Source of the DNA: Candidatus Bathyarchaeota archaeon | GTDB lineage: Archaea; Thermoproteota; Bathyarchaeia; Bathyarchaeales; Bathyarchaeaceae | NCBI GenBank assembly: GCA_963697165.1 | Contig: CAVOMX010000011.1 | Span: 96,001-160,000, forward strand | Direction of reading: 5' to 3' | Length of the DNA stretch: 64,000 nt | Shown here: in pieces, positions 36,004 to 57,354 of the stretch | How positions within the stretch are numbered: the first letter of the stretch is position 1 | How the letters are laid out: the number at the start of each line of letters is the position of its first letter | The notes under the pieces: model-generated | Database searches by the model: none | Seen by the model: only the letters and a program-made list of their open reading frames with translations | What the model was told of the DNA's origin: nothing | Translations under genes and position numbers: made by a program

Positions 36004-36612
36004 TTACCTCTTTATTATCCTCACAAAGTTCTTCAGCATTGTTAATCCTGTTTTGCTGCTTTTTTCAGGGTGAAACTGTGTTGCAAAGATGTTCTTTTTT
36101 GCCACCATCGAAGGAAACCTTACCTCATACTCCGTGGTTGCCACGATAACCTCCGGGTCTGAAGGTCGCGGGTAGTATGAGTGAACGAAATAAACGTATG
36201 AGTGATCTTCGATTCCCTCTAGTAGCGGATGAGACTGTGCAAAGTCGATGGTGTTCCAGCCCATCTGAGGCGTCTTTACGCTTTCAGGCAACTTGACAAC
36301 ATCTCCAGAGATGAAGCCCAATCCCCTGATTGATCCGCCTTCGTTACTTCGCGTGAAGAGAAGCTGAAGCCCCAAGCAGACTCCAAGGATGTACTTTCCG
36401 TTCTCCATTGCCTCAGCTACAACATCAGTTATTGATGCCATGTTTTTGACTGCTGGAGCAAACGCGCCAACGCCCGGAAGAACTATAGCATCAGCGCTAC
36501 GTAGATCCTTTGGGTTGTGGGTGATCTCGACTTGGGCTCCCGATTTTTCGAGTCCTTTGCGGATGCTTCTCAGATTTCCCACGCCATAATTCACAACTGC
36601 TACTTGAGGTAT
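36004..36612 (-). CDS. hisH: IGP synthase glutaminase subunit (probable ATA start)
   Basis: (M)PQVAVVNYGVGN, LPGVG, GVCLG, YFVHSY, QFHPEKS. Confidence 0.95.
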   Translation of the reverse strand: MPQVAVVNYGVGNLRSIRKGLEKSGAQVEITHNPKDLRSADAIVLPGVGAFAPAVKNMASITDVVAEAMENGKYILGVCLGLQLLFTRSNEGGSIRGLGFISGDVVKLPESVKTPQMGWNTIDFAQSHPLLEGIEDHSYVYFVHSYYPRPSDPEVIVATTEYEVRFPSMVAKKNIFATQFHPEKSSKTGLTMLKNFVRIIKR

Positions 36613-36614
36613 TG

Positions 36615-37202
36615 CTACAGAACCCCCTTTGCGCTTGGAACCTGATCTCCGATTCTTGCCTCAACGGTTAATGCCTGCCTTAACGCCAGCGCTAGCGCCT
36701 TTATCGTAGCCTCTATTTTGTGGTGCTCGTTGCTGCCGTAGAGGACAGTTATGTGGATGTTAGCTTTCGAGGCTTGGGCTAGGGATTCGAAGAAGTGTTC
36801 TATGTCCTCGGTTTTCAGGTCTTCGATTTGGTCTTGCATGCTTCTGAGGTTTTGGATGCAGTAAGCTCTTCCGCCTAGGTCTACTGTGGCTCTTGCTAGG
36901 GCTTCGTCCATAGGAACATAGGCTGACCCGAACCTTTTGATGCCCTTGCCCTTGTTCACTGCCTTGTGTAGTGCCTCGCCTAGAACCAGTGCTACGTCCT
37001 CGCTTATGTGATGCTTCAGGTCTCCTGTGGCTTTGACTTTAAGGTCAAAGAGACCATGCTTAGCTAGAGTGACTAAAATGTGGTCCAGAAACCTGATGCC
37101 CGTTTCGACATCTGTGGTTCCTTTTCCGTCAACATCTAGCTGCAATGTTATGTCTACTTCTTTGGTTTTTCTTTCAACCTCTACTTTTCTCAGTCTAAAC
37201 AC
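36615..37202 (-). CDS. hisB: Imidazoleglycerol-phosphate dehydratase, monofunctional
   Basis: FLDHIL, HHISED, PMDEAL, NEHHKIE; no N-terminal phosphatase domain. Confidence 0.96.
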   Translation of the reverse strand: MFRLRKVEVERKTKEVDITLQLDVDGKGTTDVETGIRFLDHILVTLAKHGLFDLKVKATGDLKHHISEDVALVLGEALHKAVNKGKGIKRFGSAYVPMDEALARATVDLGGRAYCIQNLRSMQDQIEDLKTEDIEHFFESLAQASKANIHITVLYGSNEHHKIEATIKALALALRQALTVEARIGDQVPSAKGVL

Positions 37203-38391
37203 ATCCTCTCAGACTTGTAAACAGGTATGGAATATCATTCACGTCCGTTACTACGGCGTCAGCTCCATGTTTACTGTATTCCGAAAAAAGCTTATTTGAA
37301 TCCTCTGACGAGGACACGACACCCAGAAAGAACAGGTTCTCAAGTCCCTTCGCTTTTGCTTTTTCAACCAGTATGCCGTCTGCAATGCCGTCCCCCACAT
37401 AAGCTACTTTCATTCCCTGTTTCACTGTTTTTTCTACTAATTCGATGAAAAGAGTGGGGTCTGGCTTTCCAAGTTTTTCCATATCATCCTCGGATGTGAG
37501 CAGGTCTCCAAGGAAAACGGATTCTGTTTCGTCAAAGTATCCCGTGTAACCGTATTTCTCTAGGATGTACATACCTTGTGGCCTGGGTCTTCCAGAGTAA
37601 ATTCCGAACTTGCCAAACTGTCTGCGTAGCATGTTCATGGTCTCATTGGTGGGAATAAACTCCTCCACATCCAAAAGGCTTGTATCAAACTTGAAAAATG
37701 AGGATGTGCCATAGTTTTTGTTGAATAGATCTTTGCCTAGATACGTTTCTTCAAATAGTCGCTTTAGCAGATCAGGTTTCTTAAGGTCATACGGCACCAG
37801 CCGTTTAACAAGTTGCTCTTTATCCGCTACAACCTCTGGGTCAACGCCCATGAGAGATGTTTCGATCGGTTTTGGCTTCTCAAGGCTGGCTTGCGCCAAA
37901 AACAGGTCCAAGCCAACAATATTATCGTTTTTTAGATTGGCAAGGTCTGTTCCGTTGATTCCGTAGCGTCTAAGAAAGTCGCCGACCTTTTTCAGTTTTT
38001 GAATGAAATTTTGAACATCCGAGAACTGAATGCCTCCGAACTGCTTCGTGAATTTCTGGAGGACACTTTTTTGTTCAAGTTTCCGTAGTATGAGATTTAT
38101 ATAGTAACTGATTAGGGCGTAGGACAGCTTCCAATCGTTGTTGTAACGTCCCGTGTCCTTGAATTTCTGGATGTCCAGTAAGGTGGCTAATTTTCCTTTT
38201 TCTCCTTCAAGTTCCAGTATCTCTAGGACGTAATAGTCAACCACGTTTCTTATGGTCTGGCGGTACGACTGGCTAGTTTGAGCAAGAACGCCATCAAAAT
38301 CAAAGATTATCTGTTCTATCCCACGAAGAGACTCCTCAGAATCTTCTTTAACATATATCCCCTTTTCACAGTTCAGCAACCGGTAAGACAT
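37195..38391 (-). CDS. HAD-superfamily hydrolase, putative histidinol-phosphate phosphatase
   Basis: FDFDGV, YSGRP, KPDP, VGDGIAD; located between hisC and hisB. Confidence 0.8.
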   Translation of the reverse strand: MSYRLLNCEKGIYVKEDSEESLRGIEQIIFDFDGVLAQTSQSYRQTIRNVVDYYVLEILELEGEKGKLATLLDIQKFKDTGRYNNDWKLSYALISYYINLILRKLEQKSVLQKFTKQFGGIQFSDVQNFIQKLKKVGDFLRRYGINGTDLANLKNDNIVGLDLFLAQASLEKPKPIETSLMGVDPEVVADKEQLVKRLVPYDLKKPDLLKRLFEETYLGKDLFNKNYGTSSFFKFDTSLLDVEEFIPTNETMNMLRRQFGKFGIYSGRPRPQGMYILEKYGYTGYFDETESVFLGDLLTSEDDMEKLGKPDPTLFIELVEKTVKQGMKVAYVGDGIADGILVEKAKAKGLENLFFLGVVSSSEDSNKLFSEYSKHGADAVVTDVNDIPYLFTSLRGCV

Positions 38392-38396
38392 GCTGC

Positions 38397-39488
38397 TTAC
38401 TCCTCCAATGACTCCTTTAGGGCTGAAACGAAAGTCTCGTTCATGTTTCTGGTTCCCACAGTGACCCGTATGCAATTATCTAGGAGAAACAGGTGTCCCC
38501 TGTCTTTTACCAAAACATTTCTGTTTTCAATTCTCTCTGTTAAGGCTGCAGAGCTGAGCTTGTCTTTTGTTACTTTGAAGAGGATGAAGTTTGAGTCTGA
38601 AGGGTATGGTTTCACTCCATCAATCTGCTGTAGGTTCTTCATTAGCCATTCCCGTTCATTGACTACAAGATCAATTTTTTCTTTGAAGTAGCTCCAATTC
38701 TGCAGAGCCAAAACTATGGCTTGTTGAGTTACTGAATTCACATTGAATGGCCCTACTACTCGTTGAACATATTTTACAACGGGTTTGCTTGAAGCAAGAT
38801 AACCGAGGCGAAGCCCAGCTAAACCGAACGCCTTCGAAAAGCTTCGCAATACGGCAAGGTTGTCATAGTCTCTTATCCAGTTGATTACCGAACCTGAAGC
38901 GAAGTCCACGTAGGCTTCATCTACAACCACGATGCCCTTGAATTCCTCCAAGAGCCGCTTGATGTCCGATTCTCGAAACTGGTTGCCTGTGGGATTGTTT
39001 GGAGAGCAAACGAAAAGCAGGCGCGTTTCCTTATCTGTCTTCTTCAATAGGGCGTCAACATTCAAGCTGAAGTCTTTTTTAAGCATAACCGTGACTTTGC
39101 TGCCTCCATACAACTCCGCAAAGAAAGTGTACATTGGAAACGTTGGCTCAACAACCATGACCTTCGATCCTCTTCGGACAAACACTTTCATTAGCAAATC
39201 CATGATTTCATCTGCACCATTCGCAACAGAGACTTCAGATTCGCTCAAGCCCAGAAAGTCTGAGATGGCTTTGACGGCTAGGCTGCCTCGGGGTGGAGGA
39301 TATGCACGAACATCTATGCATCGGCAAGCATCAAGCAACAGTTTTTCAACAGCTTCGCTTGGCATGGCGAAGTTCTCGTTCAGGTTCATCTTCACGATCT
39401 TTTCGTCAGGTTTTCGCTCAAGGATAGTTTTGACTTCGTAGCATGAAAGGTCTCTGACTTCCTTCTGAACCAAGTTTTTGATTTTCAT
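38397..39488 (-). CDS. hisC: Histidinol-phosphate aminotransferase
   Basis: NEN, NGADE, SPNNPTG, VDEAY, RSFSKAFGLAGLRLG. Confidence 0.96.
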   Translation of the reverse strand: MKIKNLVQKEVRDLSCYEVKTILERKPDEKIVKMNLNENFAMPSEAVEKLLLDACRCIDVRAYPPPRGSLAVKAISDFLGLSESEVSVANGADEIMDLLMKVFVRRGSKVMVVEPTFPMYTFFAELYGGSKVTVMLKKDFSLNVDALLKKTDKETRLLFVCSPNNPTGNQFRESDIKRLLEEFKGIVVVDEAYVDFASGSVINWIRDYDNLAVLRSFSKAFGLAGLRLGYLASSKPVVKYVQRVVGPFNVNSVTQQAIVLALQNWSYFKEKIDLVVNEREWLMKNLQQIDGVKPYPSDSNFILFKVTKDKLSSAALTERIENRNVLVKDRGHLFLLDNCIRVTVGTRNMNETFVSALKESLEE

Positions 39489-40787
39489 TTTTCTTTCTCC
39501 TCTCTTATTGTTATAGCCTTTGCGTGTGCGCCAAAGCCCTCCATTTCGGCGATGGTGATCGCCGTTTCTTTCAGGTTCCTATAGCCTTCTTTGCTGCACT
39601 GAAGGAAATTCATTGTTTTAACAAAATCTAGGCTCGAGAGCCCAGAGTAAAATCTTGCGTAGCCTGCCGTAGGAAGGACATGATTCAATCCGGACGAATA
39701 ATCGCCAAACGATACTGGCGAGTACCCTCCCAAGAATACTGCTCCGGCGTTTCGAATCTTGCTGAACACTTTATTGGGCGCTTTTGTTTGAATTTGCAGG
39801 TGCTCGGGAGCTATCATGTTTGCTATTTCTATTGCCTCTTCGATGTTTCGGACTGTTACTATTAGTCCTCCTTTTTCTAGGGAAGATTTGATGATGTCTA
39901 TTCTGGAGAGCGTTTTCATCTGGCGGTATACTTCTTCTTTAACTGCTAATGCTAACTTTTCGGAGGGGGTTAAAAGAATCGCCCATGCTTGTGGGTCATG
40001 TTCTGCTTGGGCAAGAAGGTCAGCGGCAATGTAGGCGGCGTTGGCTGTATCGTCTGCGATTACTAAGACTTCGCTTGGTCCAGCTGGAACGTCTATGGCG
40101 ACGTCTCTGTTTACTTCCAGTTTTGCGGCTGTTACGTAAACGTTTCCTGGGCCCACAATCTTATCCACAGATTGTAAAGTACCTTGTACCGTAAGCCATG
40201 GCGGCTATAGCCTGTACCCCTCCAACTCTATAAAATTCACTCACTCCTGCAATGTCAGCAGCAACCAGAAGTGCCGGGTTAACGTCTCCGTTCTTTCCGG
40301 GTGGTGAACACACAACTATCTTTTCAACTCCAGCCACCTTGGCTGGGATAGTACACATGAGCACCGAAGAGGGATATGCTGCTTTTCCTCCAGGAGCATA
40401 AACGCCAACAGACGCTAATGGTCGAACTACTTGCCCCAGAGTTACTCCTTCCGCTATTTGCATTGTCCATTTGGCTCTTAGCTGCTTCTTGTGGAAGCTT
40501 GCGATGTTATCCGCGGCTTTGCTCAAAGCGGTGATCTGTTCTTTTTCCAGCTTCGTGTATGCTTCCTTGATTTCTTTGTCTGTGACTTTGAGTTTTTCCG
40601 TGGCTAGGAGTACCTTGTCGAATTTTTCGGTGTACTTCAGAATTGCTGTGTCTCCATGTTCTTTTACATCAGTTATTATTGTTTTAACCGTTGATGCGAT
40701 TGATGATAAGTCAGCTTTTCCTCGGTTCAGGACTTTGTCACGTTCGTTTTTGAATTCTTTGGATGATATGATTCTCATTTTGTTCAT
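39485..40787 (-). CDS. hisD: Histidinol dehydrogenase, split by a 1-nt insertion near 40182
   Basis: GVYAPGG..GGVQAIAAMAYGT in one frame; DKIVGPGN..AGPSE..QAEHD..APEHL..NHVLPT in the other. Confidence 0.93.
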
Positions 40788-41434
40788 GCCCCTCCTCGCA
40801 GTTTGGACTGCAGTTCGCTGATTTCCTTCTCGAAGGTTCTATATGCAATTTTGTTGCAGGCTAGTCTGCTGGTCGAGTCAAGGATTGTGCCGATTATTCT
40901 AAGCTTATTTTTTCGCAATGTTTCTCCGGTTGACGTTATGTCCACTATCATCTGAGCCAAACCCAGTTTTGGTGCAAGTTCTGTTGTTCCGCTGACCTCA
41001 AGAACTTCCACCTGTTTTCCTTGTTCTTCAAAGTATCTTCTGGTTATGTTTGGGAATTCGGTTGCGACCCTTGTTAATGCAGAGACATCGTTTATTGTTT
41101 TGATTGGTGATTTTTCTGGCACTGCAACGACGAGAGTTGCTTTTCCATATTCTAGGTCCACTAATTCGAGAACGTTTGCTTCTCTTTCAAGGATTAGGTC
41201 GTGTCCGGTGATGCCTAGGTCTACGGCGCCGTAGTGCACATAGACGGGTATGTCGTTGGCTCTGGCGAATATCGCCTCGTATCGGGGGTCAGAGGTCTTG
41301 GAAACGTAGGTTCTTTCCTCTTCCAGTACTGTTATGCCTGCTCGAGCTAATGCATCAATTGTCGGTTGTTTGATGCGTCCCTTGTTCGGTATTGCTATTC
41401 GGATCCTCTTTTTCAGTTTAGGGTTGACCTCCAA
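40784..41434 (-). CDS. hisG: ATP phosphoribosyltransferase, short form
   Basis: IAIPNKGR, DLGITGHD, VATEFP, VDITSTGETL; lacks the C-terminal regulatory domain. Confidence 0.95.
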   Translation of the reverse strand: MEVNPKLKKRIRIAIPNKGRIKQPTIDALARAGITVLEEERTYVSKTSDPRYEAIFARANDIPVYVHYGAVDLGITGHDLILEREANVLELVDLEYGKATLVVAVPEKSPIKTINDVSALTRVATEFPNITRRYFEEQGKQVEVLEVSGTTELAPKLGLAQMIVDITSTGETLRKNKLRIIGTILDSTSRLACNKIAYRTFEKEISELQSKLRGGA

Positions 41435-42708
41435 GGCTTCTCAGGAACGTTTCGAACATTACCTTTCTTGAGGTAGCTGATTTTATGTCGTAAACGGTTA
41501 CAAGATTCTCCAGCGACGATTCGACGGAAACAACGTAATCTGTCTCCGTGATCTTTCCATATTCTACTGTTTTTTCGAGACTTCTTCTTGTTACTTCCAA
41601 TGAGGCTATGACTCCTGCTTTGCGAAGAGTCTTAACTGCCTCTACTGCGGCGTTTCTAAATTTGGATGATACAATAACTCTTGTTTTTGTGTTACTTGGA
41701 ATTTCGAAGCCCTGTGCTGTGAGGGCTTGAAGCAGTTTCCCGATTTCCAATGCGAAGCCTATTGCGGGTAACCTAAGTTTTCCGAATTTTTCGATGAAGT
41801 TATCGTATCTTCCTCCACTGCCGAGGGGAAGACCCAAGTTTGGAACTGATGCCTCGAACACCATTCCCGTGTAGTATTCAATCTTTTTTGTTAAGGAAAA
41901 ATCGAAGAAAACCACATCTTCTACTTTATAGTCTTTTAGTGTTTCTTGAAGTTCGGTTAAGCTCTCTAACTGCTTGTTTACTTTATCATATTTTGAGCCG
42001 GTGAGAGATACTGCCGAGACTTCATTTAATCTTCTACAGCTGGAAAGCTTAAGGAACGCTTCTCTCAGATTTGAGGGGAAACTGTTCTGTTCCATGAACT
42101 TCTTTAGCCCCACGGAGTCTCGGCACGCTAGTAGACCCTGAACAGAGACTTTTTGCGGATCATCTAATCCTGCCGAATCTAGTAGGTCTTTGAGGAGGCT
42201 GGCGTGACCCAAATCGATTCTTACTTCATTCAAGCCAACCTGTTTGAGGGAAGATATGAGTATTGCCAGTATTTCGGCGTCAGCTTCAGATGTGTTGCAG
42301 CCGACAAGTTCAACTCCTGCTTGGCAGAACTCTCTTTCTCTATTGAGGTAGGATTGACTGTACCTGAAAACGTTGTTGATGTAAAATAGCCGAATTGGCT
42401 CGGGTGCAGATTGCATTCTGGTTGTCACGATTCTTGCGACTGGCGCAGTCATTTCGGCTCTTAGTGCCAAAAGTTTTCCGTCGAAGTCTTGGAACTTGAA
42501 CATGGCGTCGACCAGTTCTGAACCTACGCCTGTGGATAGTGTTTCGACGAATTCGATTGTGGGGGTGCGGACTTCGCTGTAGTTCCATAGTTCAAAAGTT
42601 TCTTTTAGTAGGTCTTCGATGTAGCGGTATTGTTTTGCTTCGTTAGGCAGTATGTCTTTTGTTCCTTTTGGGGCGTGTAGGCGTGTGAAGGTTATTCCTC
42701 CTTTGCAT
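41418..42708 (-). CDS. hisZ: ATP phosphoribosyltransferase regulatory subunit (start ambiguous)
   Basis: In-frame extension PKGTKDILP..EVRTPTIEF; LRAEMT, EFCQAGVEL, YYTG, GGRYD; first gene of an operon with short HisG. Confidence 0.88.
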
Positions 42709-42720
42709 TATTTATCCTCC

Positions 42721-42778
42721 GTGGGTAATTTGTGGGTTGAAACCCATATTCCACACATCTTATATAAAGGTTTTCGGA
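42721..42778. promoter_or_regulatory. Divergent his / regulator promoter with candidate operator
   Basis: BRE-TATA CGAAAACCTTTATATAAG on the minus strand; palindrome TGGGT-TGAA-ACCCA and repeated GTGGGT. Confidence 0.55.
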
Positions 42779-42801
42779 AGGATTAGTGGAGACCACAAAA
42801 C

Positions 42802-43209
42802 ATGCGAATGACCGAAATAGTCAGAGTAGACTCCAGAGGAAGAATTACCATGCCCTCATCCATTCGCGAAGCAGTAAGACTCTCAGAAGGAATGTACGTC
42901 ATGCTGATAGCCGATTTAGACGAAAAAGAAATACGAATCACCCCCTTCGCCGACCCAGAAGCAATACTCGTTGAATTAAGAATCACATTCTCAGACATCC
43001 CCGGCGCCCTAGCAAAAGCCGCAAGCATCCTAGCAAAACAGGGCGTCGACCTGCTATCCAGCGAATCTAGGACTCTTCGGAGAGGAAAATCGGCTGAATG
43101 GGTTATAGTCGCCGACGTTTCAAGATGCAAATGCAAACTGGAAGAACTGGAGCAGAAAATAGTTGCAGAAGGCACTGCAGAGCAAGTCAAGTTCCGCAAC
43201 TATTCCTAG
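42802..43209 (+). CDS. AbrB/MazE-type DNA-binding domain fused to an ACT domain
   Basis: VRVDSRGRITMPSSIRE (AbrB) plus DIPGALAKAASILAKQGVDL (ACT). Confidence 0.88.
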   Translation: MRMTEIVRVDSRGRITMPSSIREAVRLSEGMYVMLIADLDEKEIRITPFADPEAILVELRITFSDIPGALAKAASILAKQGVDLLSSESRTLRRGKSAEWVIVADVSRCKCKLEELEQKIVAEGTAEQVKFRNYS

Positions 43210-43259
43210 AGTTCTGTTATAAGCGCCCAGAAAGTTACTTTTCATCGGAGTGACTGAAC

Positions 43260-43817
43260 ATGGAAGAGAGGGCCTATTTGCTGTTCGGCATTTTTGGACC
43301 TGCACTAGTTTACCTATCCATAATTGTGTCGCTTGTTCTTTCGCCGTGGTTCAGCTGGGAAAGCAACGCCTTAAGTGACCTTGGACACGCAGTTACCAGC
43401 AGTGCCGCCTCCATATTTAATCTAGGTTTGTTGATGGCAGGCTTTTTTCTGATGATTTATGCGGCGACGGTTTTCAAAAAGCACGCCAAGTATAGTAGCT
43501 TCTGTTTGTTGATTTCAACTTTTTTGGTTCAGTTATTAGCCACATTTAACGAGGCGTATGGTTCGCTTCATTATGCGGTGGCTGTGCCTCACTTTGTAAT
43601 GTTGAGCATCACTTCCATCGCGTATACCTTAGAAAAAAGGTCAACTTTTGCTCTTGTCACCTTTCTAATTGTCATGTTCTCGTGGTTACTTTATGCATTA
43701 AACATATTCAACATTGGAATTGCTGTTCCAGAAATGGTGTCAAAACTTGTTGTCTTATGGATAATGTACTCTGCCATCAGAATCTACTTTGGCAAAGAAT
43801 CTGTTAGTACATTGTGA
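43260..43817 (+). CDS. DUF998 membrane protein
   Basis: PWFSWESNALSDLGH..IFNLGL; AVPE. Confidence 0.8.
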   Translation: MEERAYLLFGIFGPALVYLSIIVSLVLSPWFSWESNALSDLGHAVTSSAASIFNLGLLMAGFFLMIYAATVFKKHAKYSSFCLLISTFLVQLLATFNEAYGSLHYAVAVPHFVMLSITSIAYTLEKRSTFALVTFLIVMFSWLLYALNIFNIGIAVPEMVSKLVVLWIMYSAIRIYFGKESVSTL

Positions 43818-44307
43818 TACTTCTGGTTCCAGGAAGTCTTCTTATCTTTCCGATCAGCTCTGACGGAATATCTCCTTCAAGGATTAGTGTTAATTTGGGG
43901 TGCTCACTTATGCTCGGGTCCTCTGCCAGCGCCTGCCTTATGCTAAGTCCATTCTCTGACACAATCTTTGTAACATCGGCTATTATGCCTGTCTGGCTGG
44001 CATTTTCAGGAACAAAAACAATAACGCTCAGGTTAAATTCACGAGCGACCTCCTGCAGCGAACACACTTGTCTAAGATTCATGTAGATTCTTTTCAGTTC
44101 GTTCTTTGAGAGTATTGTTTGAACGGTGCTGTCGACGGCTCGGCGTTCAACACCCACTTCCTTTCCGATTTGGGTGTGCGGTATCTCTATTCCTCCGCTG
44201 ACGACTTTACCGTCTTCTCTGACTTGGAATCCTCTATCGAACAAGAGCTGTGCAACACGTTGTTGGGCTGGAAAATCCTTGAAGAAATCCTTGATTCGAC
44301 TCCACAT
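43804..44307 (-). CDS. trpY: TrpY-like HTH-ACT regulator
   Basis: MWSRIK..F..FPAQ.RVA..GVERRAV..GLSIRQALAEDP; divergent from trpB2. Confidence 0.8.
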   Translation of the reverse strand: MWSRIKDFFKDFPAQQRVAQLLFDRGFQVREDGKVVSGGIEIPHTQIGKEVGVERRAVDSTVQTILSKNELKRIYMNLRQVCSLQEVAREFNLSVIVFVPENASQTGIIADVTKIVSENGLSIRQALAEDPSISEHPKLTLILEGDIPSELIGKIRRLPGTRSITMY

Positions 44308-44409
44308 ATGAAACCATCTCAAGGTACACTGTTGTTCGGCAAAGCTTATATAAATGCTTCAGGGTAAAAAAAGTTTATTCTCAAATCCGATAAAAGAAAG
44401 TGATTATTA

Positions 44410-45801: not shown

Positions 45802-45819
45802 AACAAAAACAAATCCCCC

Positions 45820-49289: not shown

Positions 49290-49412
49290 ACAATTCCACC
49301 TCACTTATTGTTTTCTTACTGTAAGCGCTTATAATATTTCTCTATGAATAATTATAGGGTATATGTTTTAAATACTCATCATTGAAATAATAAATGGTTA
49401 GATTTGTGAAAG

Positions 49413-49829
49413 GTGAAAGTTATGACTTACTGTCATAAGTGTGGCTCAGAAGTCAAGGAAGAAAATTCATTTTGCTCCCAGTGCGGCGCCGCTCTGAAGG
49501 CTGGAGAACCTAGACCATCTATTGCGCCTGAACGTTACAGAAGCGAAAAGGCAGAAAAACAGGAAAAAAATGAGAAACATGAAAAAGACGAAAAGATGGA
49601 GAAAGGCGGACAACAAGAAAAATATGAGAAGAAAGAGTTCGGCGTTTTAGGTCCACTAATCGGCGGAGTTATCCTGATACTAGTTGGCTTTATGCTGTAT
49701 CTTTCAGTGTCTGGAATTCTTAACATGAGTTCCATCTTTCCCATATTCTTAATCATAATTGGCGCAATCGTTATACTAGGCGTTGCAATAGGCGCAGTTA
49801 TGGCTAAGAGAAAGAATCCGAGACCCTAA
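49413..49829 (+). CDS. Zinc-ribbon protein with EKxEK linker and two TM helices
   Basis: CHKCG..FCSQCG, then EK-rich repeat, then hydrophobic hairpin. Confidence 0.8.
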   Translation: MKVMTYCHKCGSEVKEENSFCSQCGAALKAGEPRPSIAPERYRSEKAEKQEKNEKHEKDEKMEKGGQQEKYEKKEFGVLGPLIGGVILILVGFMLYLSVSGILNMSSIFPIFLIIIGAIVILGVAIGAVMAKRKNPRP

Positions 49830-49868
49830 AAGTTCATGCAGCATTTTCCTTTGAACTAAACGTGCCAT

Positions 49869-51020
49869 ATGCTCTTGTTTGTCGATGGGACAGCAATGAT
49901 TGGCGTAGACATCCTAAAACACATTGTTAATCCTTGGCTTGAAGCCTTAAAGAATCCTGCAGAGGCACAGCAGCAAGTCCTAGAGAAACTGCTTGAAGGC
50001 TACGCCAAAACAGGTTACGGAAAAACCCATTATGCTAACGAAACCAAAGACGGTTCTATGTTTTGCGCAAACTTTCCAACAATCAACTATGCTGGTCTAA
50101 GTCCATATCTTGAAGAAGTTAAAGCAGGAAACTACTCTGCCATACTGTCTGAGCCGCCATTATGCTGGGTTATGACCAGAGGCTCCACAGGCAATTCCAA
50201 GGTTCTTCCAGTTACCAAGACCCATATTGAACAGATTTTTTATTGTGGAGCACGAGCAATAACAAACTATGCCCTCAGAATGAACAGCATGGATGTTCTG
50301 TCGGGAAAGATACTGAACCTTAATTTTCCGTCTACAGTAACCACCACAGATGCTGGTGGACAAACGATCACTTATGGATACAGCTCAGGAACCTACGCGA
50401 AACTAAATCCAATGCTTAATCAGGTTAGCCTTCTACCCAGACAGGAGGAAATAGATGCGTTGGGCTCAGGCATCAGCAGACTTGATTGGGAGAAACGGTT
50501 CGAGCTGGTTTATCAGTCTGCCCTGAATCAGCCTGTGGTGGCCGTTATTGGCGTAACGCCTGTGATTCTTTCTTTTGCCCGATACATTAAGCGAAGACAT
50601 GGAAAACAGCCTAAAGACCTGTGGAACTTTAAGGGGCTCATCTGCACCAGCGTGAGAAAGATCCAGTTCAAGTATGGACCTGTTCTCAGGAAACATTTCG
50701 GTGAAGTTCCGATAGTTGAGATGTACAGCGCCACCGAGGGAGCGTTTGCACAGCAGCTTGACGATTTGCCGTATGTTTCTCCAAATTATGATACTTACTA
50801 TTTTGAGGTTGAGACCAGCAAAGACACCAAGATGCTCCACGAACTAAAACGGGGCGAATGGGGGCGGCTCATAATATCGTCTTGCCTGTTTCCCAGATAT
50901 GATATAGGCGATATGATTGAAGCTATGGGAAAAAACTATTTCCGCATATTCGGAAGAGCCAAACCACTAACAATCCTTGAGCACAAGCTATATAGGCTAT
51001 TTTTTAGCGGATTCCTCTAA
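49869..51020 (+). CDS. GH3 (auxin-responsive) family acyl-adenylating protein, short form
   Basis: TRGSTG..K..PVT, YSATEG, RYDIGD, IFGR. Confidence 0.8.
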   Translation: MLLFVDGTAMIGVDILKHIVNPWLEALKNPAEAQQQVLEKLLEGYAKTGYGKTHYANETKDGSMFCANFPTINYAGLSPYLEEVKAGNYSAILSEPPLCWVMTRGSTGNSKVLPVTKTHIEQIFYCGARAITNYALRMNSMDVLSGKILNLNFPSTVTTTDAGGQTITYGYSSGTYAKLNPMLNQVSLLPRQEEIDALGSGISRLDWEKRFELVYQSALNQPVVAVIGVTPVILSFARYIKRRHGKQPKDLWNFKGLICTSVRKIQFKYGPVLRKHFGEVPIVEMYSATEGAFAQQLDDLPYVSPNYDTYYFEVETSKDTKMLHELKRGEWGRLIISSCLFPRYDIGDMIEAMGKNYFRIFGRAKPLTILEHKLYRLFFSGFL

Positions 51021-51553
51021 ACATTAGGTTGTAATGAATAATGGTCTACGAAGGATGAGTCAAGTGGATACAATATTGCAAGAAATAAGCTTGTTTTCAA
51101 CAATCAACTGTTCTTAGTCTCCAAATCCATTTTTTTCCTACTATTAGTAAATAGCTATTTTTGACATAACCACTGATTTTGGGTTTGGAGCTAAAATCTA
51201 AGGGGTACGTATTATTTGCAGAATCGATAGTAAACATTTTTATTCAACAATGGAACCTGAATATTTATTATATCAGGGGAATCAATTGCCCAAATCATCG
51301 GAATCGTAATACTTTCCGTGTTGATGCTAATATTCAGCTTTGTCTTTTACGAACGCGGTGAAGGAAATATATCACTCATTCTGTTGTTCGCAAGCATAGC
51401 TCTGGCATTTATTTTAGTATTCTACCACTTTGGTTCAAAAAAACCATCAAACTAAGAATACATTTTTAGCAATCAGCTAAAAATGCGCTAAGTATTAGCC
51501 ATTCGATTTTTACTTCTAATTGTTTTTTTTGGTAATTTATATAACAGTCTAAC

Positions 51554-52498
51554 GTGAAGAAGTATCTGGAGTTTGTGGAGAGGTCGCTTGTGCATTTGCT
51601 TACTCTTAGAAATTGGTCTTCAAAAGAGATTGAAGATATTGTTGATTGTTCGTTGAAGGTCAAGAAGAGTCCTGTGGATTACGAGTTTGTTTTGGAGGAC
51701 AATTCTTTGGCGATGATCTTTCAGAAGACGTCAACTCGGACTAGGCTCTCGTTTGAGGTGGCTATGACCCAGCTTGGTGGGCACTCCATCTACATGGATT
51801 GGATGACAACGAATCTAGTTTTGGCTGATCTTGGGGATGAAATGCGGTCTATTTCGGGTTATGTTGACGCGATTATGGCACGTGTTTTGCGGAATTCTGA
51901 GTTGCGGGCTATGGCTGAGGCTTCCAGTGTTCCTGTAATAAATGGATGCGACGAAAAGTATCATCCTTGCCAGATTATCGCCGACTTGGTGACCATCAAA
52001 GAGAAGAAGGGAAAGCTGAAGGGGCTTAAGCTTGCATACATTGGAGTGCACAATAACATTTGCAACTCATTGATTGAGGGTTGCACCAGAACAGGAATGA
52101 AGATAGTAACTGTTACGCCCGTTGTGAATGAGGCTTCTGTTGATGAGGAGCTACTGGAGGCAGCGAAAGCCACGGGCTTGTATGAAAATTCTATTGATGT
52201 TAAAGCAGCTGTTGAGGACTCTGACGTGGTTTACACGGATACGTGGGTGGATATGGAGTTTTTCTTGGACGAGAAGTTCAAGAAGGAGAAGGAGAAACGA
52301 GTTAAGCTGATGCTTCCTTATCAGGTAAACAGGAAACTTTTGGGAAAGACTGATGCTCTGATAATGCATGATATGCCAATCCACAGAGGCTACGAAATAG
52401 CCGACGACATCATTAATGACCCCAACTCGGTAATCTACATCCAAAGCGAAAACAGGCTACACTCAGCAAAAGCGATACTCCTAAAACTTTTAGGGTAA
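51554..52498 (+). CDS. argF: Ornithine carbamoyltransferase
   Basis: STRTR, HPCQ, YTDTWVDM, MHDMP, ENRLH. Confidence 0.92.
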   Translation: MKKYLEFVERSLVHLLTLRNWSSKEIEDIVDCSLKVKKSPVDYEFVLEDNSLAMIFQKTSTRTRLSFEVAMTQLGGHSIYMDWMTTNLVLADLGDEMRSISGYVDAIMARVLRNSELRAMAEASSVPVINGCDEKYHPCQIIADLVTIKEKKGKLKGLKLAYIGVHNNICNSLIEGCTRTGMKIVTVTPVVNEASVDEELLEAAKATGLYENSIDVKAAVEDSDVVYTDTWVDMEFFLDEKFKKEKEKRVKLMLPYQVNRKLLGKTDALIMHDMPIHRGYEIADDIINDPNSVIYIQSENRLHSAKAILLKLLG

Positions 52499-52666
52499 AC
52501 TCTGCTTGTTTAGTCAGATTAGAGCCTTTGGGTGGAATGTTCTATGCCAATCATCCCAGAGTTTCCATCATAGATAAGACTGCCACTACTCTTGACAGCA
52601 ACCCTAGTAACCATATCTACAGAAAGAAACTGACAGAAAAAAGGGCATTTGAATATTTAACGAAGA

Positions 52667-54361
52667 TTAGCCTTTGTATTTGTTGATCATCGGCATTTTC
52701 CATCCTATGCCGAAAGCTTTGGGCGTGATTTTGATGCATGGTGTCGCCTGCCGCCTCTTATACTCCGAGTTTCTGATTCGCATGTACGTGTCTTCAACAG
52801 CATCTCGCGGATAACCCAACTCAATCAAGTCATGCTTGCTTCTGCGGTTTTCTATTATTTCGTCAACCAGCGGACTTACAACATCAAAATCGAATGGGTC
52901 AAACTGGAACGCTTTAAGTTCAGGCGACGGTTTCTTCTCCAATACATTCTTTGGTATCACCTGTTTGCCTGCCTTCTTGTTCACGTATTCTGCGAGCTTG
53001 TAGACCTCCAGCTTGCTCACGTCGCCAAGAGCCCCGATTCCACCAGCCATATCCCCATATAATGTGCAGTAGCCGAGTGCAACCTCAGTCTTGTTTCCAG
53101 TATTTAGTACCAAAATTTTCAGGTCTTTGAGTCGGTTGGATATGTCCATTAGAAGGTTTCCTCTGGCTCTGGGCTGAATGTTCTCGTCGGCAACAGAATC
53201 GTCAGCTTCCTTGGTTACACCAAAATGTTTTCGCAACTGATCCAAAGGCGCGTCCAACGCTTTGCGGTAACTGCCAACAATATCCTGTATCCCAACCTTG
53301 ACAAAACATATACCAAGATTTTCAGCCAACTGCTCAGCATCCGTTTTACTGTGGTCACTAGAGAATCTTGAAGGCATAGAAACTCCAATGACATTCTCTT
53401 TGCCTAGGGCTTCAACGGCTATGCATATAGTTACTGACGAGTCGATTCCGCCGCTCATCCCAACAACAGCCTTCTCAAAGCCAGTCTTCATGAAATAATC
53501 ATGTATCCCCAAAACTAGCGCGTTGAACATTTCCTGCGTCTTATCATGCACGGGAGTTTCGATTTTCTGGGCGGCGCCTTCTTCCAAGTCAATGTTAGTA
53601 ATCACCAAATCTTCCTCAAACTGCTTGCCTAAAGCTATCAGGTTGCCCGTTTTATCCATTGCAATGCTGTGACCATCAAAAACAAGCTCATCCTGTCCCC
53701 CAACAAGATTCACGTAGAACATGGGCACCCCATTTTTTGTTACCTTCTCTTTTAGCAACCTGTTTCGTTCAAGATGCTTTCCGACAAGAAAAGGCGAAGC
53801 AGAAATGTTAACAATCAACTCCGCACCCTTTTCAGCCAGCAAATCCGTGACTTTCACGTCATAATTCTGGTCCCACAGGTCCTCACAAATTTCTATGCCC
53901 AACTTGACCGGCTTTCCATTTAATGCAATTGATAATGGCGTGATTTCCTCCTCTCTTGCGGGCTTGAAGTATCGGTCTTCATCAAACACGTCATACGTTG
54001 GCAAAAGCGTCTTGTAAACTATGCCAACTATTTGGTTTTTGTTAAATACGGCTGCAGCATTATACAACTCCTTTCCCATGTAGTCAACAAAACCGACCAC
54101 CCCAACAACATCAACACCGTTACACCTAATCATTTCCTCGAGTACCTTTTTGTTTTTTTCAACAAACCCGTTCTCAAGCAGCAAATCCTGAGGCGGATAA
54201 CCAGTAACTGCTAATTCAGGAAAAACAACCAAATCGGCTCCGCAGCGTTTTGCCTCAACAAGAAACCTCTTTATCTTCGAGACGTTTCCTTCCAAGTCTC
54301 CCACGGTCGAATTAATCTGAGCCATTGCAACCCTCAACATTTTTCCTCCCGCTTCTAACAT
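52667..54361 (-). CDS. nadE: Glutamine-dependent NAD+ synthetase
   Basis: Nitrilase domain (FPEL, K, ICEDLW) plus SGGIDS, TGNKTE, GYCTLYGD. Confidence 0.95.
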   Translation of the reverse strand: MLEAGGKMLRVAMAQINSTVGDLEGNVSKIKRFLVEAKRCGADLVVFPELAVTGYPPQDLLLENGFVEKNKKVLEEMIRCNGVDVVGVVGFVDYMGKELYNAAAVFNKNQIVGIVYKTLLPTYDVFDEDRYFKPAREEEITPLSIALNGKPVKLGIEICEDLWDQNYDVKVTDLLAEKGAELIVNISASPFLVGKHLERNRLLKEKVTKNGVPMFYVNLVGGQDELVFDGHSIAMDKTGNLIALGKQFEEDLVITNIDLEEGAAQKIETPVHDKTQEMFNALVLGIHDYFMKTGFEKAVVGMSGGIDSSVTICIAVEALGKENVIGVSMPSRFSSDHSKTDAEQLAENLGICFVKVGIQDIVGSYRKALDAPLDQLRKHFGVTKEADDSVADENIQPRARGNLLMDISNRLKDLKILVLNTGNKTEVALGYCTLYGDMAGGIGALGDVSKLEVYKLAEYVNKKAGKQVIPKNVLEKKPSPELKAFQFDPFDFDVVSPLVDEIIENRRSKHDLIELGYPRDAVEDTYMRIRNSEYKRRQATPCIKITPKAFGIGWKMPMINKYKG

Positions 54362-54431
54362 AACCCCGAAAACGCAGAAATTACGTTACCAAACTTAAAT
54401 GAAACGTTTATCCCTAAAAAAGATGATTCTT

Positions 54432-55337
54432 TTACTTGAGTATCATCTGCGTGAACATTTCAGGCTCAAAAGCCTTCAAGTCCTCATAGGTCTGTCCCAC
54501 TCCAATGAAGATAATGGGTTTTCCAGTTACGTGAGCCACACTCAGGGATGCCCCGCCCTTAACATCAGCATCAACCTTCGTCAGTATGGTTCCGTCAACG
54601 TTTACGCTCTTATGAAACTCCTCCGCCTGCAGCACCGCATCGTTTCCTATGAGCGCATCAATAACCAAAATCGTCAAGTCTGGATTTACAACCCGCTTTA
54701 TCTTAGCAAGCTCGCTCATTAGATTCCTGTCAGTCTGAATACGCCCCGCAGTGTCAATCAAAACCACATTTATTCCCCGAGACTGAGCATGACTAATAGT
54801 GTCATACGCCACAGCCGCAGGATCAGCACCATACTTATGCTTAATCATACGCACGCCTAATCTCTTAGAGTGCTCCTCAAGCTGCTCTATAGAACCGGGA
54901 CGGTAAGTATCACTGCCAGAAAGCACAACAGAGTAGCCATTATTCATCAGAAACTTTGTAACCTTAGCTATGCTGGTGGTTTTGCCGGTTCCGTTGATTC
55001 CCACAAAAAGAATTGTATAGGGCTCCTTTGTCTTCCTCTTCTGCTCAATTCTATCAAGCAGATTGATTTCTTCTTTTGTCGTCAAAATCTCAATTAAGAC
55101 ATCATGAAGGGTCTCCTTCACAAGATCTTTACGGTCGCCAAGCCGCTTCACCTGAGCTCCGTCGAGCCGCTTCTCCAGCTCATCGGTTATGTAATAGGCT
55201 ACGGGTACCGCAACATCGTTTTCGATAAGATTAAGCCTGAATTCGTCTAAAATGGGACGCAGCTTTTCTGCTTTCAGCTCAGTTACTACAATCTTGCTGA
55301 CGGCGTTGCTAAGCCCCTTTCTTAGCCTGTCGAACAC
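54432..55337 (-). CDS. ftsY: SRP receptor FtsY
   Basis: GINGTGKTT, DTYR, DTAGR, TKVD. Confidence 0.97.
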   Translation of the reverse strand: MFDRLRKGLSNAVSKIVVTELKAEKLRPILDEFRLNLIENDVAVPVAYYITDELEKRLDGAQVKRLGDRKDLVKETLHDVLIEILTTKEEINLLDRIEQKRKTKEPYTILFVGINGTGKTTSIAKVTKFLMNNGYSVVLSGSDTYRPGSIEQLEEHSKRLGVRMIKHKYGADPAAVAYDTISHAQSRGINVVLIDTAGRIQTDRNLMSELAKIKRVVNPDLTILVIDALIGNDAVLQAEEFHKSVNVDGTILTKVDADVKGGASLSVAHVTGKPIIFIGVGQTYEDLKAFEPEMFTQMILK

Positions 55338-55770
55338 CTGTCTGCTCTCCTTCTCTCAGCTTCGCCGAAACATCTTCCATTCTGGCTCGATTTTCCTGAA
55401 TTCTACCAACAACCTGATTAAACTGCTGCCCCAAAGCCTCCCTCGTCTTCTCAAGCTCAGCTATACGTGCTTCTAGTTCCACTTTGGCTTCCTTAAATGT
55501 CCGTTCAACAGCAACATCCGCGCCTATACCCACAACAACATTTTCTGGGGTCTCCAGCTTAGCTTTAATATAAGAGCCTCCGCCAACAGGAACAAAAAGC
55601 TGTGCACCTTTCTTCTCCTTCTCCAAACCTTCAAGGGTCATGCTTGAAACTTTCAGTTCGTTTACCGCAGAGTTTGTCATGCTGAGTCTGGACTGCAACT
55701 CGTTAATTGTTTCTTCTAGGAAACGCGACTCCATAACTAATCTACGAAAGACCTCTTCGTCACTGGACAG
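55309..55770 (-). CDS. pfdA: Prefoldin alpha subunit (probable CTG start)
   Basis: VPVGGGSYIKA..VVVGIGA; conserved position before ftsY. Confidence 0.92.
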   Translation of the reverse strand: MSSDEEVFRRLVMESRFLEETINELQSRLSMTNSAVNELKVSSMTLEGLEKEKKGAQLFVPVGGGSYIKAKLETPENVVVGIGADVAVERTFKEAKVELEARIAELEKTREALGQQFNQVVGRIQENRARMEDVSAKLREGEQTGVRQAKKGA

Positions 55771-56014
55771 ACTCTTCCGCTCCTTGAGTCAACTTCTTCA
55801 TTATGTTGTCTTCAATATCCTCAAGAGCTATCTCCTCTACCTTGGAGATTTTCATCTGGAAGCGTTTGACTCTATGTTTGCTTCCTAACAGCATGTAGAC
55901 CTTCTCTACTGCATCCTCCGGCTTCAAGGCTCTAACCTCTTTCCGGAAGTCTGTTTGAAAATTGGGTTTCCTGATTTTTCCTATAACTCGAAAAACTTTT
56001 ACTTCATTCATCAT
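55760..56014 (-). CDS. rpl18a: Ribosomal protein L18a/LX
   Basis: KVFRVIG..FRKEVRA..EKVY..LGSKHRVKR. Confidence 0.93.
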   Translation of the reverse strand: MMNEVKVFRVIGKIRKPNFQTDFRKEVRALKPEDAVEKVYMLLGSKHRVKRFQMKISKVEEIALEDIEDNIMKKLTQGAEESVQ

Positions 56015-56685
56015 TACTTCACCACATCAAGTGCTTGTCCAATTATGAACATTTCGGGTCCAGTAGTTAACAGACCCACCAGAGCCCCAGTACTATTACC
56101 TATAAGACCTGTGGAAACATAAGGTATTCCACAATTAATGGTTCCAACATCAACAGGAACCTTCAACACATCATTTAACACTTTTCGTTCCTCCTCTTTA
56201 AGCAAAGGATGAGCCAACACACCCTTATTTGTAGCAGTTGCAAGCGACCCAACATACGGTAGCCCAGCTATCTCAGTGGGAACCACTTCAACTCCCAAGG
56301 TCTCCTCGATCTTATTCATGTCTTCTCTTTCCATCCTAGGATGAACCACGGCGCCTTTGTCGTTAGCCAAGACCATGTTTCCGTAGGCTGTTCTCTTCGT
56401 GTCCATAACAGTCACGTTAATGTCAGCGACTGATTTAATGGCTTTGACCTCCTCTTCCGTGGCAAACGAGGAAAGGACAACGCCGTTAGAATTGGAACAG
56501 GCTAGTGCGCCCACGACTAATGATTTACCCACTGTAGTGGCAACGACTTTTACTTTCAACCATTCCTCAACCTTTTGTCGCTTAGTTTCTGGAACCTGTG
56601 GGGGAATAATTGCGATTTTATCGTTGACAAGTGAGTAAACTCCTATGCTTGCGTTACCAAACAAATCAAAGAGAAAAAGCGGCAA
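56014..56685 (-). CDS. eif6: Translation initiation factor aIF-6
   Basis: IGVY, NSNG, GNMVLANDKG, GTINCG. Confidence 0.95.
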   Translation of the reverse strand: MPLFLFDLFGNASIGVYSLVNDKIAIIPPQVPETKRQKVEEWLKVKVVATTVGKSLVVGALACSNSNGVVLSSFATEEEVKAIKSVADINVTVMDTKRTAYGNMVLANDKGAVVHPRMEREDMNKIEETLGVEVVPTEIAGLPYVGSLATATNKGVLAHPLLKEEERKVLNDVLKVPVDVGTINCGIPYVSTGLIGNSTGALVGLLTTGPEMFIIGQALDVVK

Positions 56686-56688
56686 ATG

Positions 56689-57187
56689 CTAGTCTCCTTC
56701 AGCAAGAAGAACAGTCACTACCCCTTCCTTGTCTTTAACAACACGGACTCTGATTCTTCTAGGCGGCTTCTCGATTCCTCTGCTCCAAAGTTTTTCGTTA
56801 ACTTCATTAGATATGACTAGCCTCTCTGCCTCTTCCTCTTCGTCGTCGTAAGTTTCAGTGCGGACCTTCATGTGCTTTATCACAAAACTTTTTACAACTC
56901 TTGCAGCTTTCGGAGCACGTTTCTTTCGTGGGGACAATCCAAACCTTTCTTAGAGGAATCGTGTAGAACCTTTCCTCAACAATGTCCTCTTCCTCTAACT
57001 CTTTTTCTTTCTTTTTGCTCCGCTCTTTTGCTTCTACGAAGTCTTCTTCGTCCTCAACTTCTTCGTCTTCGAGTTCCTCATCCTCTTCCGCGGGAACCTC
57101 AGAATCTGACTCTTCTTCTGTCTCCTCAGTTTCCACTTCTACTTCTTCTTCCTCTTCTTCAGTAATCTCATCAACAGGTTTTTCCAT
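56689..57187 (-). CDS. rpl31e: Ribosomal protein L31e with acidic N-terminal extension (1-nt insertion near 56931)
   Basis: ERFYTIPLR in one frame; PRKKRAPKA..VNEKLWSRGIEKPPRRIRV in the other. Confidence 0.9.
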
Positions 57188-57198
57188 CTGATTTTCCC

Positions 57199-57354
57199 TC
57201 AAGCCTTTATCTTTCTCTGTCGCCAGCGTCTCCGCTTCGGATTAGATCTAACTTGTCCACCTGTTTTGGCTATAACCCATGTTGGAACAGGTTTCTTCTG
57301 TTTTCCAGCCTTAGCAAGCCTTAATTTTTTGGCGGTTGGTTTGTTTCTTGCCGT
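57199..57354 (-). CDS. rpl39e: Ribosomal protein L39e (ACG start)
   Basis: (M)[38 protein letters not shown], 51 aa; conserved gene order. Confidence 0.93.

Follow-up and report, generated by a model that had tools for sequence, protein, structure and literature searches.

The window, i.e., the whole stretch of 64,000 nucleotides of the Candidatus Bathyarchaeota contig that was analysed, carries the genes rpl39e, hisH, pfdA, hisG, and hisB, all on the minus strand. An earlier note had assigned them start codons other than ATG, GTG, and TTG (ACG for rpl39e, ATA for hisH, and CTG for the other three) and had placed each within ~11 nt of an upstream stop. Both statements agree with the sequence, the distances being +3, +2, −11 (overlap), +1, and +1 nt for rpl39e, hisH, pfdA, hisG, and hisB, respectively. 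NCBIfam models match the five proteins read from these codons from residue 1–9. The start codons were aligned with those of 24 relatives of the same genus (Ca. Bathyarchaeum; protein identity 72–93%), and the start-column counts given below contain one row per genome, these kin genomes not being independent.

Candidate start codons of the window genes

The rpl39e gene (57199..57354) has the candidate start ACG at 57354–57352, 3 nt past the upstream stop and behind a Shine–Dalgarno (SD) motif at 57365–57369. The product read from it has the 51 aa given in the earlier note, and no ATG, GTG, or TTG is present in the whole frame. In the same column, ACG is found in 10 of the 23 relatives, ATG in 11, and GTG in two, with at least four switches between ACG and ATG/GTG within the genus; an in-frame canonical codon is also absent in six of the ten ACG-type relatives.

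The hisH gene (36004..36612) follows the hisB stop after 2 nt, with ATA at 36612–36610 and an SD-like G run at 36623–36627 (duplex −10.3 kcal/mol). There is no canonical codon upstream, and the nearest downstream one lies at +6 codons. Its start is non-canonical in 23 of the 24 genus relatives (ATA in 11, ATT in five, ACG one codon upstream in seven), and the last has GTG. One-nucleotide indels immediately 5′ of the start codon can be noted in four loci. The pfdA gene (prefoldin alpha, 55309..55770) overlaps the last 11 nt of rplX; its CTG (55770–55768, SD at 55780–55784) has no canonical codon upstream in the frame and the first downstream one at +12 codons. CTG is present in 12 of the 13 relatives and GTG in one (CTG in 17/19 with a looser search, the present genome included). 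Thus, near-cognate codons of rpl39e, hisH, and pfdA share a column with the ATG, GTG, or TTG of relatives, and since the codons themselves recur in that column across genomes, sequencing errors can be considered ruled out for these three genes on comparative grounds.

The hisG gene (short form, 40784..41416) has CTG at 41416–41414 and an SD at 41427–41432 (−10.5 kcal/mol), and hisB (36615..37193) has the candidate CTG at 37193–37191 and an SD at 37204–37210 (−7.4 kcal/mol). The canonical alternatives mentioned in the earlier note are indeed in frame, namely TTG at −6 codons for hisG and GTG at −3 for hisB; the nearest downstream canonical codons are at +59 and +16. Relatives have ATG (19/20) or TTG (1/20) in the hisG column and ATG (18/22) or TTG (4/22) in the hisB column. 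Both CTGs occur only in the present genome and are missing even from a relative with 88% DNA identity.

The hisZ start and the leader of the his operon

A sixth case in the window, missed by the earlier note, is hisZ (41418..42695, minus strand), the first gene of the his operon, with ATA (42695) or TTC (42689) as candidate starts. Its frame runs for 64 codons without a canonical start, and the outgroup genome G048 has ATG in the ATA column. The hisZ start is overlapped out of frame by an SD-led upstream ORF (uORF) of 21 codons that contains His codons (42643..42708, minus strand); this arrangement is kept in 15 of the 19 genus loci and in G048. The absence of a canonical hisZ start, together with the overlap by a His-codon uORF, is new here. 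Two SD motifs lie in the leader (42696..42720), one at 42715–42720 ahead of the uORF, and the other at 42696–42701 adjoining the ATA and, counted from GGAGG, 7 nt before the TTC. The operon promoter (42733..42769) comprises a TATA box at 42759–42769 and a conserved inverted repeat at 42733–42746. The first ATG of the leader, inside the inverted repeat, was rejected as the start of a conserved uORF: its frame differs among genomes, and it is merely 21 nt from the TATA box start. Folding of the leader was no better than that of shuffled sequences (z −0.22). A search of 37 other Bathyarchaeia for hisZ revealed a single full orthologue; most of the other matches, 28–41% identical and with canonical starts, are probably HisRS.

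Sites beyond the window and the probable role of the Shine–Dalgarno motif

The same pattern is observed outside the window, in TFB, dnaG, cdc6, tsr3, hflX, trm56, and thiolase genes. The TFB start column contains ACG in 18 of 20 genomes; an ATT was rejected as the TFB start, the conserved codon being the ACG five codons upstream of it. All five genus loci of dnaG have ACG, with an in-frame stop three codons upstream in this gene, and G048 has TTG. The start codon is CTG in 3/3 cdc6 loci versus ATG in two outgroups, ATC in 4/4 tsr3 loci versus GTG, and ACG (5/6) or ATA (1/6) in hflX; the five genus loci of trm56 have CTG (two), ATC (one), and ATG (two). Homology of the start column to canonical starts was also found for the thiolase, a ribokinase-like gene, and a nuoL-like gene. 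Spacer indels fall immediately 5′ of the near-cognate codon. The priL gene probably has a start of this type as well. That it may start at GTA/TTA is also new here; the candidate codons GUA, UUA, and GUU occupy the loop of a hairpin that is conserved.

A survey beyond the window gave near-cognate starts for ~2% of genes (7/334), a rate based on one pair of genomes. Many apparently forced cases were assembly frameshift errors and were removed by eye (rpl18e and ksgA were checked). A pairwise substitution tally was too noisy, and in another attempt shadow frames and aligned leaders obscured the signal. In a reference-free test of the present genome, near-cognates upstream of the first canonical codon were SD-led in 34 of 1616 cases versus 117 of 10,079 for other codons (OR 1.83, p = 0.004), and inside genes the OR was 1.06 (p = 0.12). 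The overall effect is modest, and no single codon was significantly enriched after correction for 58 tests; the test listed 44 SD-led candidates, most of them without a relative in the compared loci. The earlier note had spoken of this lineage, which is too narrow, as near-cognate starts were also found in other Bathyarchaeia.

The 17 near-cognate sites have SD duplexes of −6.1 to −13.0 kcal/mol at normal spacing. Their median, which takes in five sites picked in the earlier note with the SD in view, is −7.8 kcal/mol versus −5.9 kcal/mol for canonical starts (p = 0.0005). The hisZ ATA is an exception to this pattern (−3.1 kcal/mol).

The earlier note had ascribed the unusual codons to relaxed selection specific to termination–reinitiation at coupled genes, possibly tuning subunit stoichiometry. 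HisH/HisF and HisZ/HisG form heteromers, which would suit such tuning, and 9 of the 17 sites lie near an upstream stop versus 31 of 157 canonical starts (p = 0.005). However, without the five window sites, only 4 of the 12 further sites, which were found regardless of spacing, have an upstream ORF stop at a distance of 12 nt or less, versus the same 31/157 (Fisher p = 0.27). Besides the window genes, the nuoL-like gene, trm56, hflX, and tsr3 are near a stop (within 11 nt), whereas for TFB, an Adk-like kinase, the thiolase, the ribokinase-like gene, and one further site any ORF stop is more than 150 nt away. A TATA box of its own lies ~125 nt before TFB, which is not preceded by a co-directional gene, and the sequence ahead of cdc6 is AT-rich. 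Between priL and its upstream stop lie 26 nt, and, according to PMC10666635, a distance of 20 nt nearly abolishes coupling. A densely packed operon of ribosomal protein genes on C14 had no near-cognate start among the genes resolved (rpl5 not among them). The tie to termination–reinitiation was therefore not borne out, and we consider this explanation improbable. Since several of the genes, TFB among them, are leading ones and just 4/12 independent sites are near a stop, the common factor of the near-cognate sites, judged from their sequences, appears to be a strong SD and not coupling.

Probable initiation at near-cognate codons

The proteins might instead start at neighbouring canonical codons, with the near-cognate column being ordinary coding or spacer sequence. 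Such codons do exist at hisH (+3 to +6), hisB (−3), hisG (−6), TFB (−5), and pfdA (+10 to +12); those of hisB, hisG, and TFB lie upstream in the present genome, and among the 23 relatives whose hisH start is non-canonical, 13 have one just 3–4 codons 3′ of it, with a weak SD. But this is impossible for rpl39e here and in its six relatives mentioned above, and no usable in-frame canonical start is present in rpl39e, pfdA, hisH, dnaG, cdc6, tsr3, hflX, and trm56. A shift to the downstream canonical codon would delete 57–96 residues in several cases (79–96 in cdc6, tsr3, and the Adk-like kinase), and none of the alternatives has an SD at the proper spacing. This makes such starts very unlikely.

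ACG and CUG initiation is known in eukaryotes and viruses, where it depends on scanning with Kozak context, and in plant organelles ACG starts are edited to AUG; the codons are the same, but here they are anchored by an SD. C-to-U editing of the mRNA in the organellar manner (ACG to AUG, CUG to UUG) would fit the commonest classes, ACG and CTG, and the frequent alignment of CTG with TTG and of ACG with ATG. Still, not every odd start is convertible: ATA, ATT, and ATC (hisH, tsr3, Adk-like) cannot be repaired in this way, yet they swap with ACG/CTG in the same columns, and the dnaG ACG is aligned to TTG, so that editing appears scarcely credible.

Least probable of all are assembly or base-calling errors, to which the absence of the hisB and hisG CTGs from relatives and the indel-prone assembly (frameshifts in hisD at 40182, rpl18e, and ksgA) might point, because the rpl39e, hisH, pfdA, and hisZ codons recur in 10–23 other genomes and the hisG CTG stands in an identical short-read contig; an error is possible for the hisB CTG alone. 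That contig, of Illumina type from run X3, has 0 differences over 330 nt, and a contig of run X1 likewise has 0 differences at the hisH ATA, extending only 16 nt past the codon. Runs X1–X3, which may represent the source itself or a closely related strain, contain less than half of the sampled words. At 40182, the hisD frameshift, one base is missing from contigs of X2 and X3, in line with the indel errors reported earlier for the window.

A loss of proofreading through a missing or degenerate aIF1, aIF1A, aIF2, or initiator tRNA was rejected, as all of these are intact. The earlier note had suggested an inspection of aIF1/aIF2 and the initiator tRNA; these and aIF1A looked normal: aIF1 is present in 39 of 41 genomes and matches a solved archaeal aIF1 over its full length, aIF1A and aIF2 alpha, beta, and gamma are present, and the tRNA has A1:U72, three G:C pairs, and CAU. 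No change accounting for mismatch tolerance was found in aIF1 or the initiator tRNA. Autoregulation of the infC type by aIF1 was discarded, since aIF1 itself starts with ATG in the present genome and in all 30 loci examined.

We infer, with a probability of about 0.78, that Met-tRNAi, anchored by the SD and tolerating a mismatch, initiates at codons that differ from AUG in one position, in intact genes making up ~2% of those of the genus. A strong SD:anti-SD helix would set ACG, CUG, AUA, AUU, or AUC into the P site at the usual spacing of 7–11 nt, and the normal archaeal machinery would tolerate the mismatch often enough, probably with lowered efficiency. Termination–reinitiation may help at stop-adjacent sites and would not be needed. 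Thr, Ile, and Leu codons replace one another in a single column, which would be expected only of codons that all stand for Met. The rpl39e, trm56, hisG, and hisB positions drift between AUG and near-cognates; the starts of hisH, TFB, hflX, dnaG, and tsr3, weak throughout the genus, suggest selection for low or conditional output.

A bolder and rather doubtful extension is that in these Bathyarchaeia the SD defines the start more than the codon does, allowing double-mismatch starts (GUA/UUA/GUU at priL and possibly UUC at hisZ), and that weak starts are control points. The uORF with His codons could then respond to histidine, with ribosomes stalling or shifting by +1 at the first CAC, and in this way control how much the coupled operon yields, which would be an archaeal translational attenuator.

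Mismatch-tolerant initiation has proven precedent in bacteria (PMC2830850, PMC13009471, and 10.1101/063800): conserved non-canonical starts of dnaA (ATC), rpsL (CTG), and infC in Deinococcus (PMC2830850), and AUA/AUU behind extended SD motifs in infC, cvfC1, ccpN, and citZ of S. aureus, where the near-cognate output of reporters is ~10% of that of AUG (PMC13009471). As in these infC/dnaA exceptions, SD-led near-cognates with strong SDs and probably lower output are found here at conserved replication and translation genes; they differ in frequency (about four sites per genome in the bacteria, versus a predicted ~2% of genes here, with ACG common) and in the aIF1/aIF2 system in place of IF3. 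For archaea, the available text of PMC7531240, PMC4705826, and PMC6237735 gives only AUG, GUG, and UUG as starts and describes aIF1 as rejecting AUU, which the S. solfataricus factor does in vitro (PMC4705826). The present sites share the SD, the 7–11 nt spacing, and the factors with such initiation, and TTG or GTG is used at 63 of 157 anchored canonical starts of this genome. In ribosome profiling of Haloferax volcanii (PMC7261190), near-cognates made up ~30% of the putative alternative sites, so that archaeal ribosomes may use them; in that study these sites were discounted as possible false positives, whereas here near-cognates would be the conserved main starts of core genes. The window genes, spaced at −11 to +3 nt with intragenic SDs, resemble coupled genes, but in the accessible parts of PMC6728339 and PMC10666635 restarts are canonical, and several near-cognate genes here are leading ones. 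No report of near-cognate starts of archaeal main ORFs was found in the open-access literature searched.

Very probably, ~2% of ordinary genes in this archaeon and its relatives, including those of a ribosomal protein, a transcription factor, and replication enzymes, begin at near-cognates behind a strong SD. Because ACG, CTG, ATA, ATT, or ATC replaces the standard codon, gene finders would truncate or miss tens of genes per genome, including markers such as rpl39e; the earlier note's expectation that pipelines limited to ATG, GTG, and TTG truncate such genes is well supported, as is near-cognate initiation itself on comparative grounds. The class affected is among the most abundant classes of sediment archaea, and the present host is uncultured. 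Genes whose ATG in one species is replaced by ACG in a second provide ready test pairs. If Bathyarchaeum does start TFB, DnaG, Cdc6, PriL, eL39, and prefoldin at ACG, CUG, or AUN, the archaeal P site would tolerate more under SD control than has been assumed, with a bearing on why eukaryotes became more stringent after losing the SD.

Start codons of the five window genes

The near-cognate codons (one mismatch from AUG) that an earlier note had read as the starts of rpl39e (ACG), hisH (ATA), pfdA, hisG and hisB (CTG) were all present as described. Each of the genes is encoded on the minus strand, with the codon at −11 to +3 nt from the upstream stop. The NCBIfam models of L39e, HisH, prefoldin alpha, HisG and HisB match from residue 1–9 of the proteins begun there. 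The rpl39e frame contains no ATG, GTG or TTG; hisH and pfdA have no canonical codon upstream, the nearest downstream ones being at +6 and +12 codons, respectively. In-frame upstream codons are present in hisB (GTG, −3) and hisG (TTG, −6).

Start columns were counted with one row per same-genus genome; these genomes share 72–93% identity across 8927 aligned residues. The rpl39e column has ACG in 10, ATG in 11 and GTG in two of 23 genomes, with at least four switches between ACG and canonical codons on the midpoint-rooted genus tree (parsimony). The hisH column has ATA in 11, ATT in five, ACG one codon upstream in seven and GTG in one of 24, and that of pfdA CTG in 12 and GTG in one of 13. The relatives have ATG (18) or TTG (4) in hisB (n = 22) and ATG (19) or TTG (1) in hisG (n = 20). 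One-base indels are located in the spacer immediately before the near-cognate codon, which indicates that the reading frame opens at this codon. The hisG CTG is covered by a contig of a public sequencing run (X3), with no differences over 330 nt; the source, or a strain close to it, may be among those sequenced in such runs. Sequencing or assembly error is excluded, with the exception of hisB.

The split of hisD (39485–40838, minus strand) is an assembly error: contigs from two public runs do not contain the one-base insertion at ~40182 that causes it. The rpl31e gene (56689–57241, minus strand), which has a long acidic N-terminal extension, is split over two frames, probably by an indel error. 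Across the genus, hisC and hisB are separated by a HAD-like gene (400 aa; 37195–38475, minus strand), whose product is a candidate histidinol phosphatase.

Probable near-cognate starts within and outside the genus

In total, 111 ORFs were scored, with shadow frames and fragments among them; they came from three DNA searches of the genus and from the his operon, rpl39e cluster and aIF1/TFB loci. Of these ORFs, 37 were inspected column by column. Near-cognate starts were found in hisH, hisB, hisG, hisZ, pfdA, TFB and priL; rpl18e and ksgA were ruled out as indel errors of the assembly under study, rpl5 yielded no column, and the other inspected ORFs have canonical starts. When the genome under study was compared with 40 tiles of a second genome (G005), seven of 334 filtered orthologue pairs (2.1%, interval 0.8–4.3%) had a non-canonical start in the former, all called by eye and two solely on an ATT shared by both genomes. 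These genes are TFB, priL, dnaG, a thiolase, a ribokinase-like gene, an Adk-like kinase and one unnamed gene.

A reference-free test on 1503 long ORFs of this genome agrees with the orthologue comparison: upstream of the first canonical codon, 34 of 1616 near-cognate codons were Shine–Dalgarno (SD)-led vs. 117 of 10079 other codons (OR 1.83, p = 0.004), and within genes there was no SD-led near-cognate excess (OR 1.06, p = 0.12). ACG ranked first (3.5-fold), and no single codon passed correction. The near-cognate reading was borne out for all four SD-screen candidates compared in five genomes each: cdc6 (CTG in 3/3 genus loci, ATG in two outgroups), tsr3 (ATC in 4/4, GTG in outgroup G048), a gene presumed to be hflX (ACG in five, ATA in one of six) and trm56 (CTG in two, ATC in one, ATG in two of five genus loci). 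The dnaG gene has ACG in 5/5 genus loci, three codons past an in-frame stop (TTG in G048), and TFB has ACG in 18 of 20, with no nearby canonical codon in 13. The weak start is retained in hisH (23/24), TFB, hflX, dnaG and tsr3; in rpl39e, trm56, hisG and hisB the start switches between weak and canonical. Further SD-led candidates are a MetRS-like gene (contig C25, ~36050; TTC or an indel), a PIN-domain gene (C4, ~1345; CTG) and a gene with ACG (C6, ~12660).

Beyond the genus, near-cognate starts are rarer, yet present. ACG occurs in 3 of 69 rpl39e loci, pfdA is canonical in 61 of 63, and PCNA has CTG in 1 of 24. With genus loci counted in, ftsY has one CTG and one ACG among 72, and eIF6 (78/78) and rps19e (76/76) are canonical in Bathyarchaeia. 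TTG is kept by eIF6 in 74 of 78 and by rps19e in 74 of 76 loci (L031–L110), a further indication that start-codon identity is under selection.

The his leader and priL

The his leader (42643–42769, minus strand) carries a TATA box and a conserved inverted repeat, followed by an SD-led uORF that contains His codons and overlaps the non-canonical start of hisZ, the first gene of the operon. This layout recurs in 15 of the 19 genus loci and in one outgroup. The hisZ column is ATA in the genome under study and 15 of 18 relatives, aligned with ATG in G048, and the nearest canonical codon is 52–64 codons off in 15 of 18. The chance that ATA is the start is about even; it abuts the SD (−3.1 kcal/mol). 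Initiation at TTC/ATC two codons further, where SD spacing is good (−10.0), is unlikely. A His-dependent shift or stall is equally unlikely. A second SD with ATG, TTG or GTG opens the out-of-frame uORF in the 15 loci and G048, and the uORF is absent in three genomes and in another frame in one. The first of the His codons in this uORF is conserved in 20/20 loci, the second in all except the genome under study; invariant third positions are otherwise rare (28/790 columns; 2/18 His columns).

The inverted repeat is likely an operator. A small gene divergent from the his promoter (42787–43209, plus strand), conserved in the genus with ATG, encodes what we take to resemble an AbrB/MraZ-type regulator, a candidate binder of the repeat. 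The hisZ-type gene (41418–42695, minus strand) has a close orthologue in just two of 37 other Bathyarchaeia genomes searched, and the operon seems patchy across the class.

The putative priL start is TTA (8), GTA (8) or GTT (2) in 18 genomes, 8 nt past GGAGG, with no nearby canonical codon in 15 and in-frame stops just upstream in nine. Three outgroup genomes have GTG, ATA or CTG in this column, several others GTN without a canonical codon, and in others again ATG, TTG or CTG sits one codon upstream. The codon falls at the loop of a conserved hairpin, which is predicted for 17/18 genomes and also accounts for five invariant synonymous priL codons. The hairpin lies directly past the SD (L275:7110–7160, contig C24), and the putative start is 26 nt after the PCNA stop. 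A double-mismatch start would be the simplest reading; the next codon, CTN, is likewise in range.

Shine–Dalgarno strength and the initiation machinery

The spacing of ATG starts peaks at 7–11 nt past GGAGG, and the five window sites conform. Median SD duplex energy is −7.8 kcal/mol at the 12 near-cognate sites not found via the SD screen, five of them picked in the earlier note with the SD in view, vs. −5.9 at 157 canonical starts (p = 0.0005); the SD is also stronger than at 51 canonical starts ≤30 nt from a stop (median −6.1, p = 0.019). We favor, with a probability of about 0.78, initiation in which a strong SD would keep the one-mismatch codon in the P site and Met-tRNAi would pair with it. 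The strongest indication that these codons function as starts is that Thr, Ile and Leu codons replace one another at a single column.

The near-cognate codons at the start columns of Bathyarchaeum genes are real and conserved; attribution of such starts to termination–reinitiation, possibly tuning stoichiometry, is not supported. An upstream stop lies within 12 nt at 9/17 near-cognate sites, any same-strand ORF of 50 codons being counted; minus the five initial picks, the figures are 4/12 vs. 31/157 canonical (p = 0.27). TFB has its own TATA box ~125 nt upstream, preceded by a divergent tRNA gene. It is described that 20 nt nearly abolish reinitiation (PMC10666635) and that the SD contribution to coupling differs from gene to gene (PMC6728339). 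RNA editing of start codons cannot account for ATA, ATT or ATC.

SD-held pairing would work as it does in bacteria, where SD-led initiation at near-cognate codons is known from several cases: Deinococcus dnaA (ATC), rpsL (CTG) and infC (non-canonical) (PMC2830850), four S. aureus sites with ~10% of AUG output (PMC13009471), and E. coli reporters with 1–2% for AUA, AUC, AUU and CUG and 0.1–1% for the remaining codons (10.1101/063800). Archaeal start codons are given as AUG, GUG and UUG (PMC7531240, PMC4705826), a fidelity role is ascribed to archaeal aIF1 (PMC6237735), and near-cognate alternative sites in Haloferax profiling were seen, then set aside (PMC7261190). Searches of the open-access literature turned up no paper describing archaeal genes whose main start is a conserved near-cognate codon.

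The aIF1 gene, found in 39 of 41 genomes, starts with ATG, and the G005 copy aligns end to end with a solved archaeal aIF1. The aIF1A and aIF2 alpha, beta and gamma genes are all present, and the anti-SD is standard. In the initiator tRNA, the diagnostic features are in place: A1:U72, the three G:C pairs and CAU. No trans-acting cause of the tolerance was found in aIF1, aIF1A, the aIF2 subunits, initiator tRNA or anti-SD; thus, SD-led initiation in archaea may be tolerant in general, and the Bathyarchaeum clade may simply make more use of this.
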